Part shown: piece after piece, positions 7,945 through 16,372 of the stretch | Layout: each line of letters opens with the position of its first letter | Position numbering within the stretch: the first letter of the stretch is position 1 | Assembly (NCBI GenBank): GCA_013286215.1 | Contig: JABDGC010000001.1 | Span: 92,564-156,563 of the forward strand | Reading direction: 5' to 3' | DNA length: 64,000 bases | Source: Gammaproteobacteria bacterium | GTDB lineage: Bacteria > Pseudomonadota > Gammaproteobacteria > DSM-16500 | The notes under the pieces: model-generated | Databases searched by the model: none | The model's input: only the letters and a program-made list of their open reading frames with translations | Told to the model about the DNA's origin: nothing | Made by a program: the position numbers and the translations under genes

Positions 7945-10152
7945 ATGTTTAGAGTACTACGGCACATAAGGCCATATTCTTCCGACTTAAGTGATGAACT
8001 TATGACTTCGCGCGTTGTAGTGCCAGCATTTTCAGCTCCAGCAGCTTCAGCTGCGGCACTAGCAGCTCCAGCTTTAGTACCTGCAGGTACCAGGAGGAGC
8101 CTCTCTCAACCGTCAACTACAACCTTGACCCTCGATGCAGTGAGGCCGAGGCCGCGTGAAGGTAAATATCAGCGACCTGGCGCGGGTCAACTCATCGCGT
8201 GGGCAAAAATGGTTAAGGATGAAATTTCTCAGATTACAAAGACCCTTAGCGAAGTCAAAGACCCGGACCCTGTGCCTGAAAACTTAGAGTTAGCGGCTAG
8301 TGTCGCAGGCCTTCATGCATGTAAATTAGAGCTGATAGCGGGTAGAGAGCAGTTGAAAATCGCCTTACTACAAGCCTTAAAGCAAAGATTGGCTGAGAGA
8401 TTACGTGCTGGGATAAGAAAAGCCGTTGAAAAGGCAAAGCTCGATCCAGGAGGGGCTGAATTAGAAAAAGTCGCGCGGCTCAACAGACAATTTCAAGGTT
8501 TTGCGCAGATTAATGCTAGCTATAAATCGGTGAGTTTTTTGGATGAGTTGGCTCGGGATTTTTCTGGGCTGTCCCTAACAAGAATCCAAGAAAGAATGCT
8601 CGACCTTTTGCGTCAAATGGATGACCACGACCACTCTGCGTCTGATAGCTTGAAAGAGGTAACTAAGGCCCTGCGTGAGTTGGCTGCCGAAGCAGGCTAC
8701 CAGGAGCTGCTTCTTGGAACAACATCGCCTGATTCGCCTTCTCCCTTTCGAATTGATGGTGGTAGCCAGTTTATTGTGTGGAATGAAAAAGCTAATTTGA
8801 TGGAAGCCGAACTTTTGCGTTCGTCGGAAGCGATCAGTGCTTATGTCAGGCAGCAAAGAGTAGGTCATGCCTATGCTGTGGCGGAAATTAGCTGGATGAA
8901 GATCCTGGTTGGCAAGCTTAAGACTTTGCAAGCAATCTATCGGAGTGGGTGTGATGACTATAATAATGGTCGAGAGATAAAACGTCAGGCCCATGATAGT
9001 CAGATAGGCACAATTATAGCTGAATTTAAAGAAGTAATATTCAATGGTCAGTCTTCCCTTGTTAATGGTGCTCTGATTGATCTTGAGCAAAGCGTACAGA
9101 TTGAAGTTAAGCAGGAAGTTAAGCAGGAAGTTAACGATGCAGCTAGACATTCAGTTGGACAAACTAATTCCAAGTGCGGGGGTGTGCAAAGCCAAGAGAC
9201 ACTCCTGGCTAAGAGTATAGTCACTTTGCACGAGAGTTTTTGGAAGCGGAAAGCCGAAGCGGACAAGCTGGTTTATATGTTTCAGAGTCGGGATGAGATT
9301 ATTCAGGATCTGCGCCGGCACGTTAATGCCACCCGTTCTTCTTACCGGTTGCTCAAAGTGATACAAGAAGCAAATGTCATCTATAATGGAAAGTTGCCTG
9401 TGGCGTTTTCAGGTCAACTGTGTGCAGCGTTTAAAATGCAAAGTGAGTTAGTCCAAAGAGTGATCGAACCCACTTCATCTAGACCTGAAGCAGCTGCCGA
9501 TTTAGTAGACCATCAGTGCGGGCGAAGCGAGTCCACGTATGAGTCCAAGCACGAGTCTAAGCACGAGTCTAAGCACGAGTCTAAGCATGAGTCCAAGCAT
9601 GAGGCTGGCAGACACCTCCATTTGAGCAAACCCGCAACAGAGACAGAAGCACTATTAGAAAAACTAGATGCAGCTGTGACTGCTTTTCAATCACCAGTTG
9701 AGCTGATTCGTGGCCAACTTTGTCGTACTCTGACCATGGCAATTATGGATCGTCATTATTGGCATGGACAGCTATACGGGTCTTCTCTTGGTCTGAGAAA
9801 GAAAAAAGATTTGCCGACGGGTATTTTGGCGATGCGAGTGTTGATTTCTACGCTGCGGGCTGAAAATGAAAACTGGGCGAATGACCCTGGTTTAGCTACA
9901 AGGTTCTTTGCGGGACTTCAGGCAATAGCAAGCAGCCGCATAGTTCATAAAAATTCTGTTTGCTGCGGTTTATTTAAATATAGCCCTCTTCGCAGCGCCC
10001 ACCTTTCGCAGTTCTATCAGTTCTTAGATAAACTGAAGCTGGATACCCAGGGGCTATATATAAGCAGTAAGCTTGAGGCTGCCGAGCAATTGCATGTTGT
10101 TACCACGAGCAATGCTCGTGTGACTTCCAAGTCCAAGCCTTTTACTCTTTAA
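7945..10152 (+). CDS. family-1 paralogue 2 (735 aa), unknown function
   Basis: It shares with paralogues 3 and 4 the N-terminal helical domain (LQIALLQA-KQ-LAE..., FNRQFQGFAQI, DDH..SD..K), one TRSSYRLLKVIQEANVIYNGKLP module, and the C-terminal domain DRHYWHGQLYGSSLGLRKKKDLPTGI...ENENWANDP...HLSQFYQFLDKL. Confidence 0.85.
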   Translation: MFRVLRHIRPYSSDLSDELMTSRVVVPAFSAPAASAAALAAPALVPAGTRRSLSQPSTTTLTLDAVRPRPREGKYQRPGAGQLIAWAKMVKDEISQITKTLSEVKDPDPVPENLELAASVAGLHACKLELIAGREQLKIALLQALKQRLAERLRAGIRKAVEKAKLDPGGAELEKVARLNRQFQGFAQINASYKSVSFLDELARDFSGLSLTRIQERMLDLLRQMDDHDHSASDSLKEVTKALRELAAEAGYQELLLGTTSPDSPSPFRIDGGSQFIVWNEKANLMEAELLRSSEAISAYVRQQRVGHAYAVAEISWMKILVGKLKTLQAIYRSGCDDYNNGREIKRQAHDSQIGTIIAEFKEVIFNGQSSLVNGALIDLEQSVQIEVKQEVKQEVNDAARHSVGQTNSKCGGVQSQETLLAKSIVTLHESFWKRKAEADKLVYMFQSRDEIIQDLRRHVNATRSSYRLLKVIQEANVIYNGKLPVAFSGQLCAAFKMQSELVQRVIEPTSSRPEAAADLVDHQCGRSESTYESKHESKHESKHESKHESKHEAGRHLHLSKPATETEALLEKLDAAVTAFQSPVELIRGQLCRTLTMAIMDRHYWHGQLYGSSLGLRKKKDLPTGILAMRVLISTLRAENENWANDPGLATRFFAGLQAIASSRIVHKNSVCCGLFKYSPLRSAHLSQFYQFLDKLKLDTQGLYISSKLEAAEQLHVVTTSNARVTSKSKPFTL

Positions 10153-10226
10153 ATGGAGAGTCATATCACTCAGTGGAAGCTAATAGGCGACATCAGATTG
10201 TAAGGATTGACCGCCTGCTGGGTCGG
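10151..10226 (-). repeat. fossil copy of the 3' end of the FGE gene (non-functional relic)
   Basis: aaatggagagtcatatcactcagtggaagctaataggcgacatcagattgtaaggattgaccgcctgctgggtcgg aligns base-for-base with 15224..15305, which encodes the last ~25 codons (PSARRGVDPYNPMSHISFRLVMG) of the real FGE gene on the minus strand. Confidence 0.8.
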
Positions 10227-10240
10227 TTAAATGCTTTTTA

Positions 10241-10268
10241 CACACACACACACGCACACACACACACA
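10241..10268. repeat. (CA)6-CG-(CA)7 dinucleotide microsatellite in the leader/promoter of family-1 gene 3
   Basis: The tract cacacacacacacgcacacacacacaca lies 19-46 nt upstream of the ATG at 10287. The homologous leaders of genes 2, 4 and the pseudogene read only ttcacacgcaaa or tttacacacaaacaca. Confidence 0.9.
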
Positions 10269-14655: not shown

Positions 14656-14697
14656 TTAAATGATTTTTACACACAAACACAGAAAATGAGGTGATTG

Positions 14698-15204
14698 GTG
14701 TTTAGAGTGATGCCGCAATTAATTAAAAATAAGCGGGAAATTATGGATTCTAAGATTGCCGTGGGGTCACGAGTTGGCGGAGGTGCTGCGGGTTGAAATA
14801 GACAAGATTGGTAGGGACGTCCTTGCTAGAGCAGCACGTGCATTGCTGGCTCAGGAGCGCCAGAAAATAATCGATCGATTTAACAGACAATTTACAGGTT
14901 TTGCAAGAATTGGGACAAAGCACGGGGCTGACCCGGAGGTTATTTTAACGGATTTGGTTACAGATTTTACTGCAACATCCTTGAGCGACATTGAAAAAAG
15001 AATGCTGCAACTCTTGCAGTCGACAGATGATCATAGGCGTATAATAGACCTCTTCGAAACGACCATCTTTCAAAGTTTTATCAGTTTTTAACTAAGCTGA
15101 ATCCGGAGAAGATAAGCATAGGTCATTTCCAGGAAGCCGAACAATTACATGCGGTTACTACTGCGTTGGCTATGACAACGAAGAGAGCTGCTTTGTCCGT
15201 GTAA
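14698..15204 (+). pseudogene. family-1 paralogue 5, a degraded copy of the paralogue-3 type (start ATG changed to GTG, two internal deletions, frame broken)
   Basis: The leader and first codons match 10262..10375. Homology then jumps to the 10665..10930 region (ORF 14756..15091: EVLRVEIDKIGRDVLARAARAL...RFNRQFTGFARI...STDDH). It jumps again to the last ~160 nt of gene 3 (ctcttcgaaa..tttatcagtttttaacta..ctgaatccggagaagataagcata). About 0.3 kb and 1.3 kb are missing. Confidence 0.8.
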
Positions 15205-16372
15205 CCGAAGTCGTTTGTTCCTTAAACAGAGCGCCCATCACTAACCGAAAGCTAATATGCGACATCGGATTGTAAGGATCGACCCCGCGCCGCGCGCTGG
15301 GTCGATAGCTCATGCAAAACTGCGGGTCGCATAAAAAGGAACCACCGCGAATCACCCGTTTGGGCGCGTCAAAAGGCGTGTCCGCGTGTGACGGATCGAA
15401 GCTTACTTCGGGGCCTTGTGGATTGCCGCTCACAGCATTTTTAGCTGCGAGCACAAAAGCATCTGCGCGATACCAGTCAGCCACCCATTGCCAGGCATTC
15501 CCAGCCATATCATAGAGGCCATAGCCATTTGGCGGATAACTTGCCACCGGAACGGTGGCAATTTTCGCTTTGTATTCCGGTTCGACCACGGGAAACTGCT
15601 TTCCGGCAAAGGTCTGGGCCATCGATTTTCCTTGAGGCTGGTATTCATTTCCCCAGACATAATCCGCTTGCTCCAGACCGCCACGCGCAGCAAATTCCCA
15701 TTCAGCCTCTGTTGGCAAGCGTTTCCCAACCCATTGAGCATAGGCCTGTGCGTCCACATAGGAAACCTGCACTACGGGATAGTTTTCTTTGCCTTGGAGG
15801 TCGCTGCCCGGTCCCTGGGGATGACGCCAGTTAGCTCCGGGCACAAATTTCCACCAGCGGGCGGCATTATCCAGTGGCACGGGCTTGGCAGTGCCAACAA
15901 AGACCATGGCCCCGGCCAGCAGTTTTTTTTCCGGCGGTCTGGGCGTGCCGGGTGGGAGCTGGACTTTGAGTGTTTCCCAGTCTGGTTTTTGTTCCGCGGT
16001 GGTGACGTAGCCGGTGGCTTTCACGAAGGCTGCGAATTGTGCATTGGTGACATCGGTTTGGTCCATCCAAAATCCATCGACCTTGACGCGATGAGCCGGC
16101 TTTTCATTGTTTCTGGCCAGACGGCTCGAGCTGCCCATGAGAAACTCTCCGCCGGGGATCCAGGCCATGCCTTGGGGGCCGGTGACGCCGTCGCCGATCA
16201 CGGGGTGGAAAGGCTGCGGATGTCTATGGAGCAGGAGAACGGTTAAGAGGAGGAGAGAGAGGAGGAAAATGAGCGTAACAATTTTTGCCTGCCAGCCTAA
16301 TGCATTCATTTCCATAGCCAATACGGTCTCCGTTCTAGCGCTTTTCAAAAGGAAAAATGAACTTCCAGTCAT
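15170..16372 (-). CDS. formylglycine-generating enzyme (FGE/SUMF1 family sulfatase maturase) with an N-terminal membrane anchor
   Basis: Motifs MAWIPGGEFLMGS, RLPTEAEWEFAARGG, YDMAGNAWQWVADWY, RVIRGGSF and a C-terminal SFRLV. A TM helix (IVTLIFLLSLLLLTVLLL) sits near the N-terminus. The last ~20 codons read into the pseudogene remnant. Confidence 0.9.
   Translation of the reverse strand: MTGSSFFLLKSARTETVLAMEMNALGWQAKIVTLIFLLSLLLLTVLLLHRHPQPFHPVIGDGVTGPQGMAWIPGGEFLMGSSSRLARNNEKPAHRVKVDGFWMDQTDVTNAQFAAFVKATGYVTTAEQKPDWETLKVQLPPGTPRPPEKKLLAGAMVFVGTAKPVPLDNAARWWKFVPGANWRHPQGPGSDLQGKENYPVVQVSYVDAQAYAQWVGKRLPTEAEWEFAARGGLEQADYVWGNEYQPQGKSMAQTFAGKQFPVVEPEYKAKIATVPVASYPPNGYGLYDMAGNAWQWVADWYRADAFVLAAKNAVSGNPQGPEVSFDPSHADTPFDAPKRVIRGGSFLCDPQFCMSYRPSARRGVDPYNPMSHISFRLVMGALFKEQTTSVTRTKQLSSLS

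Follow-up and report, generated by a model that had tools for sequence, protein, structure and literature searches.

Remnants of a neighbouring formylglycine-generating enzyme gene suggest two nested tandem duplications in an orphan gene array

Two relics of the FGE 3' end

The 64,000-nucleotide stretch of an uncultured Legionella/Coxiella-like gammaproteobacterium analysed here (assembly GCA_013286215.1, contig JABDGC010000001.1, positions 92,564 to 156,563; hereafter the window) contains a tandem array of orphan genes, which we call family 1, that faces an intact gene for a formylglycine-generating enzyme (FGE). Two short segments between the array genes, F1 (10147-10225, plus strand, in the antisense orientation of the FGE 3' end) and F2 (14576-14654, plus strand), match the 3' end of FGE at 15219-15304. 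We consider it likely that these relics have no function and were left behind when two nested tandem duplications built up the array. Judged by their sequence, they are true fossils of the FGE 3' end rather than copies of a dispersed repeat. An earlier note on this DNA had aligned these intergenic segments with 15224..15305 and read them as fossils of FGE; the alignment is real, with the boundaries given above, and the reading as FGE fossils is borne out by the conserved C-terminal motif of FGE and by the lack of dispersed copies, both described below.

The similarity is far above what the surrounding DNA yields by chance. When the 67 bases of FGE at 15224-15290 were compared without gaps to both strands of the window, F2 agreed at 56 positions and F1 at 47, against 34/67 at the best unrelated position. 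Assembly-wide BLAST returned the relics with E-values of 9.5e-16 and 1.6e-9, and found no further copy, linked or unlinked, beyond F1, F2 and FGE itself; since the assembly (1.5 Mb in 59 contigs) is 63% complete, such assembly-wide counts are a lower bound.

In the three-copy alignment, which was checked by hand, 60 of the 78 gap-free columns are invariant, and pairwise identity is 86% for F1-F2, 86% for F2-FGE and 81% for F1-FGE. The correspondence is nonetheless not base-for-base, as had been stated: each relic, of about 79 bases, lacks the same 7 nt that FGE has, and F1 carries one extra base. The common 7-nt loss would shift the reading frame of FGE. Relative to FGE, seven substitutions are common to F1 and F2, seven are private to F1 and three to F2. 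Among the common ones are two changes that turn codon 376 from CGG into CAC, removing the Arg of FRLV that is invariant in all 13 FGE homologues compared. Between the deletion, the replaced Arg376 and, in F1, two in-frame stops on the minus strand, coding capacity is gone in both relics. The translation earlier given for one of them (ATQRAVDPYNPRSYISFHLVMG) is correct; its first five residues (ATQRA) fall outside the FGE register owing to the 7-nt deletion.

The direction of descent can be read from the source gene. FGE (15170..16372, minus strand, 400 residues) is intact and matches PF03781 with 259.3 bits against a gathering score of 23.3, residues 68-378 covering profile positions 4-254 of 255. 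The copied stretch corresponds to residues ~357-384 and encodes the invariant end of the FGE domain, ...RPSARRGVDPYNPMSHI(S/G)FRLV. It had been described as the last ~25 codons of the gene; it does encode the end of the conserved domain, but the open reading frame (ORF) continues for 18 codons past FRLVMG, its stop lying at 15170-15172, and shares 35 nt with the last member of the array, pseudogene D'. Homologues have the C-terminal motif CxSYRPSARRGVDPYNPMSHI(G/S)FRLV in common, and the end ...CMSYRPSARRGVDPYNPMSHISFRLV is nearly invariant in 13 of them (65-82% identical overall; four with 1-2 substitutions), those with source names coming from Gammaproteobacteria or Legionella metagenome-assembled genomes. 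Because the motif is conserved among FGE homologues, the sequence is native to FGE, and descent ran from FGE to the relics.

A dispersed repeat of the repetitive extragenic palindromic (REP) or miniature inverted-repeat transposable element (MITE) kind that overlaps the FGE 3' end by chance would likewise be short, carry an inverted repeat and lie between genes in two of its three copies. We regard this explanation as extremely improbable. There are just three copies, all within 5.2 kb, the many unlinked copies of a REP or MITE being seen neither in the assembly nor in three same-genus genomes, where the relic/FGE-end sequence was not found at all; and the FGE copy encodes a C-terminal motif that is invariant in homologues 65-82% identical in other bacteria. 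What was found instead is homology to the end of an intact neighbour, a position at the boundary of tandem paralogous units, and the orientation and flanking continuity of the parent gene. As the earlier note had it, each relic sits directly at the stop of a family-1 gene, starting at the TAA of gene A (10150-10152) and of gene C (14580-14582).

Could the relics have been kept for a function, as a terminator for A and C, as part of the promoter of gene B, or as antisense RNA to the 3' end of the FGE mRNA? They fill the whole intergenic space upstream of the leaders of B and D', one weak terminator-like hairpin spans the F1/leader junction, and transcription running on past A or C would yield RNA with ~80% complementarity to the FGE mRNA. 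Still, retention for any of these roles seems quite improbable. Promoter-like and terminator-like matches in 7700-15400 occur at shuffle level (8, against 8.9 and 7.8 expected), and an intrinsic terminator is not indicated by one weak site that is present in F1 only. RNAs comprising relic and leader fold no better than shuffles (z -0.17 and +0.26), the relics seem to diverge at the same rate as pseudogene D', and one of the two precedes a dead gene.

Architecture of the array and order of the duplications

Repeat finding and a four-way alignment of the units give the locus order X | A-F1-B | X'-C-F2-D' | FGE, with leaders before A, B, C and D', all elements but FGE lying on the plus strand. 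Gene X (4711..7908, 1065 aa) is a distant family-1 member with internal repeats, the family-1 profile matching its C-terminus, and leader homology begins at its TAA. Gene A (7945..10152, 735 aa; no Pfam match) ends with its stop codon at the start of F1. The leader of gene B (10226..10286) follows, with a GAGGTG ribosome-binding site and an expanded (CA)n, and then gene B itself (10287..12371, 694 aa) and ~17 nt (12372-12388) homologous to the flank between D' and the FGE tail. Exactly at the B-C junction lies a second kind of fossil, X' (12391..12512), a defunct duplicate of the final 105 nt of X and 17 nt downstream, 78% identical to 7804-7925. Gene C (12531..14582, 683 aa) is the positional copy of A, and D' (14700..15204) is a pseudogene copy of B, 81-91% identical to it, with a broken frame and internal deletions of ~0.27 and ~1.28 kb. 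The homologous parts are offset by 4587 (X/X'), 4400-4406 (A/C), 4429 (F1/F2) and 4399 bp (B/D').

Some features of these elements stand apart from the question of their origin. X' keeps an open frame of 41 codons that resembles the tail of X (GGLQAAKTGGAIASLQNAEIAAVAAK... versus VGLQAAQTVGAVVSLPNAKAAEVAEE...), which could be due to chance (p ~0.14). The (CA)n tract in the leader of B (10241-10268) is longer than in the homologous leader of D' (ACACACAAACAC); its expansion would postdate the two-gene duplication. The family-1 array has a G+C content of 45-49%, versus 53-54% in the FGE/sulfatase pair and 50-55% in the flanking core genes (4000-15000 versus 15000-24000).

The junctions of the array suggest the following history. 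Ancestrally the order would have been X, leader, a single gene G, and FGE convergent to G, with the 3' ends of G and FGE overlapping. A convergent arrangement had been proposed in the earlier note, and it agrees with the continuous passage from gene to FGE sequence in the 3' flanks at A-F1, C-F2 and D'-FGE. A first tandem duplication of ~2.3 kb would have taken in the leader, G and ~100 nt at the 3' end of FGE, reaching from the X stop codon (7904/7905) on the left to the equivalent of 15304/15305, around codon 357 inside FGE, on the right. The product would have been X-G1-F'-leader-G2-FGE, where F', freed of coding constraint, could then have lost 7 nt from the centre of a palindrome (described below) and the invariant Arg of ...GFRLV. 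A second tandem duplication, of 4,587 bp, would have reached from 7804 (codon -35, 105 nt before the X stop) to ~17 nt past the stop of G2. Its right end (~15221) would lie in the non-conserved tail of the FGE ORF, leaving ~17 nt of FGE-derived sequence behind. This second event would have copied X'-leader-G1-F'-leader-G2 and created the junction of flank and X', giving today's X | A-F1-B | X'-C-F2-D' | FGE. Afterwards D' would have decayed by two deletions and a frameshift.

The FGE-internal junction probably arose once, F1 and F2 being copies of one junction, because the relics have the same end point, the same leader fusion, the same 7-nt deletion and seven substitutions in common. Both end at the same base and run into the same fusion, GGGTCG[G/C]TTAAATG, and the TTAAATG with which the leaders of B and D' begin is a copy of the ...GTTAAAG that contains the TAA of X. 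The earlier note had supposed repeated use of a breakpoint within the FGE 3' end by tandem duplications, two or more of them breaking there independently. There are indeed two relics, and the strong palindrome at 15278-15306 might be a fragile site prone to repeated breakage. The claim has some truth in it as well, in that the right breakpoint of the second event (~15221) is likewise within the FGE ORF, in its non-conserved tail; a break there could hardly be avoided, given that FGE and the last array gene overlap at their ends. Nevertheless, independent breaks are very unlikely. End point and fusion partner are identical in both relics, as are the frame-breaking 7-nt deletion and the seven substitutions, and later homogenisation would be needed to produce such likeness. 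Moreover, the relics stand 4,429 bp apart, one period of a 4.4-4.6-kb repeat unit whose own junction carries X' instead.

A single origin of the FGE junction, before the two-gene unit was duplicated, fits the relationships among the genes. Sites informative for the grouping of A with C and B with D' outnumber those for the two alternatives by 29:6:1 in the N-terminal block, 20:1:2 in the C-terminal block and 4:0:0 in the leaders. The clade of B and D' has a support of 99/99 in a tree of the C-terminal domain with outgroups that otherwise has no resolved groupings, and of the three pairs that A, B and C form, A-C scores best. An early stop (GTAA; 12366-12371 and 15199-15204) is common to B and D' and absent from A and C, whose tails are ~7-10 codons longer and end with the relic-boundary TAA (10150-10152 and 14580-14582). 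The short tail is probably the derived state, because an outgroup homologue (P0124) is also long-tailed, with a PKP motif. We also considered a templated insertion of F'-leader-D into an older A...C array, which would make B and D' younger; it was rejected, the extreme 3' end of B and its flank resembling D' and not A or C, and the early stop being common to both.

Several observations weigh against this history. Gene conversion across the junction could in principle have homogenised two relics that formed independently. No more than 2-3 nt of microhomology can be made out at the junctions, which later substitutions have blurred. No related genome with an intermediate array was found in the searches of related genomes, proteins, contigs and metagenomes that could confirm the order. 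Finally, one 4.6-kb duplication predicts equal ages for A/C and B/D', and their divergences are unequal.

Unequal divergence within the repeat unit

The inequality is clear when A-C and B-D' are compared over the same columns, namely the N-terminal and C-terminal blocks present in both pairs. For A-C, K is 0.64 in the N-terminal and 0.27 in the C-terminal block; for B-D' the corresponding values are 0.22 and 0.10. Third-position identity over these two blocks is 52-66% for A-C and 78-90% for B-D'. The synonymous divergence (dS) of A-C is 0.5-1.2; over the whole gene, A-C has a dS of 0.85 and a nonsynonymous divergence (dN) of 0.52, and dS for A-B, at 0.98, is only slightly higher. The X-X' fossil pair (K 0.26) and the leaders of A and C (K 0.29) are intermediate. 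The two relics (K 0.16, from 78 sites only) equal the B-D' pseudogene pair (63/428 differences, K ~0.16) and fall below the synonymous divergence of the flanking A and C genes. The earlier idea that the locus holds a built-in record of the order of events is sound as regards the order, the FGE junction and then the two-gene unit, but not as a clock, for the divergences within the unit disagree.

Such unequal divergence calls for a further process that would have made A and C seem older than the other parts of the unit. Gene conversion could have homogenised F'-leader-B/D', a divergent allele could have taken the place of most of A or C, or A and C could have changed at a rate above neutral. 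One possibility, which we hold to be less probable than not but worth serious consideration, is that the nested architecture stands and the duplications date back to the A/C split, later gene conversion within the array (concerted evolution) having kept the relics and B/D' similar; the divergence of the relics would then not date the duplications. B-D', their leaders and F1-F2 do look uniformly young (K 0.10-0.22) against a dS of 0.5-1.2 for A-C, and F'-leader-B/D' forms one unbroken young-looking stretch, of the kind that a single conversion tract would leave. On the other hand, X-X' and the A/C leaders are also far less diverged than the bodies of A and C, which would require a second tract or selective constraint. 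Nor is a tract boundary visible, since the coding tails of A and C beside the relics are ~85% identical if two 5-nt indels are allowed, and the confidence intervals on these short segments are wide. BLAST between the units found no mosaic or conversion blocks, that is, no high-identity A-C block and no X-derived stretch in C, with the segments compared being short.

A somewhat less likely alternative starts from the nested duplications as reconstructed above. If relics, X' and D' were co-duplicated with A and C, they would serve as an internal neutral clock, by which A and C may have diverged ~3-4 times faster than neutral (K 0.64 versus 0.16-0.26). The family as a whole evolves fast. Its members are genus-restricted helical proteins without a Pfam match (10 representatives among 1.84 billion), with pairwise dN of 0.52-0.67, dS of 0.85-0.98, 34-41% amino-acid identity and a dN/dS of ~0.6, constraint being nearly absent outside the last ~150 codons. 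Should the neutral-clock reading be true, the locus would be a direct example, calibrated from within, of diversifying evolution at a faster-than-neutral rate in a family of orphan, effector-like genes.

Breakpoints, genomic setting and significance

Food for speculation is offered by the sequence in which the first duplication would have ended. A GC-rich palindrome (ATCGACCCCGCGC/GCGCTGGGTCGAT, with 13-nt arms and a 3-nt loop) lies at 15278..15306, inside the FGE codons for RPSARRGVD. It is the top-ranked inverted repeat of the 1.35-kb FGE region, and the plus-strand sequence surrounding it forms a far more stable fold than shuffled sequence (z = -3.1). Homology to the relics stops at 15304, within the right arm of the palindrome and 2 nt from that arm's outer end. 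The first breakpoint is thus at the foot of the strongest FGE palindrome, and the second is ~80 nt away, in the FGE tail. The centre of the palindrome is missing from both relics, removed by their common 7-nt deletion, and it may have been lost once coding constraint ended. Stalling of replication, or template switching, at such a hairpin may have produced the breakpoint of the first event. At the junction of F' and leader the readable microhomology is at most 2-3 nt (CG/G), and the second junction is blurred by substitutions.

Short-junction duplications have been studied in enterobacteria. A template-switch model was put forward for tandem amplifications in E. coli with 4-15 bp of junction homology (Slack et al., 2006; PMC1428787), and junctions of spontaneous rearrangements in Salmonella had >10 bp of homology (Sun et al., 2012; PMC3411829). 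Like these, the array consists of head-to-tail, kilobase-scale repeats joined at non-homologous points, the FGE side of its first junction is G-rich (GCTGGGTCG), and a structure-forming sequence lies at the breakpoint, which would fit replication stalling and template switching. The differences are that the enterobacterial cases are fresh laboratory amplifications of 7-32 kb, whereas the duplications described here are old, fixed and diverged in a natural genome, with units of 2.3 and 4.6 kb (PMC1428787, PMC3411829). Likewise, the microhomology of at most 2-3 nt, without a clean reading, compares with 4-15 bp (PMC1428787) or >10 bp (PMC3411829) there, and for the array a mechanism of this kind is inferred.

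The locus also resembles the partial-gene duplicates that segmental or tandem duplications leave at their edges, from which it differs in some respects: FGE and the last array gene overlap convergently, so that an FGE fragment could hardly fail to arise; the pieces are short (79 nt, and ~17 nt after gene B); and with two kinds of fossil (F' and X') both junctions can be placed with an error of a few bases. Pieces of genes left at the joints of duplications are a familiar sight. When a duplication stops within the next gene, a 3' piece of that gene without a promoter ends up at the new joint, where it decays as a pseudogene, and nested duplications copy such fragments in turn.

Relatives of the array are few. 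Of 40 related genomes, two from the same genus carry family-1 members, all of them distant; when 5.8 billion proteins were searched by words, the query itself was the only match, and a scan of genome contigs for related arrays found nothing. A metagenome scan yielded one distant homologue, the outgroup P0124 mentioned above (860 aa; contig L021, 5895-8477), which follows an IU nucleoside hydrolase gene, the syntenic position. The contig ends 10 nt past its stop, possibly an assembly break at a repeated array. In the same-genus genome G002 (L022, G002:C18, 9105-12310), two tandem short family-1 paralogues (426 and 469 aa), with a reverse ORF of 117 aa between them, lie between the genes for IU nucleoside hydrolase and HtrA, and that slot has no FGE or sulfatase. 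The slot between these two genes is a variable hot spot. In this the array is like the tandem orphan effector-like arrays of Legionella/Coxiella-like bacteria, being a genus-restricted, fast-evolving family in a variable slot between conserved genes.

The FGE and sulfatase genes may themselves be late arrivals. FGE was not found in three same-genus genomes. In the window, the membrane-fusion (HlyD-type) gene beside HtrA (18118-18723) is cut at about residue 200, with sulfatase and FGE next to it. In the closest relative by HtrA (contig L023, 3081-5801; 92% amino-acid identity in HtrA), HtrA is followed by an intact 364-aa membrane-fusion gene and then by a further large gene, presumably a pump, that runs off the contig end. 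The cut gene, set against this intact version, suggests that the sulfatase/FGE pair replaced most of an efflux operon. The pair would accordingly have arrived at the slot in this lineage, and both duplications would have come later. Against this closest relative, synonymous sites of HtrA are saturated (dS at least 1.5), and the comparison sets no helpful limit on how old the FGE insertion can be; HtrA is also 67% identical to that of Aquicella lusitana.

Taken by itself, the locus is a neat but ordinary example of junction debris, with neither a new mechanism nor a new functional element. What it adds is a reconstruction, close to base level, of how two nested tandem duplications could have turned a single gene into an orphan array of four in an uncultured Legionella/Coxiella-like bacterium; both duplication junctions can still be read. 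This growth would postdate the arrival of the neighbouring FGE-sulfatase pair. Two kinds of fossil and a pseudogene may provide neutral yardsticks inside a fast-evolving family.

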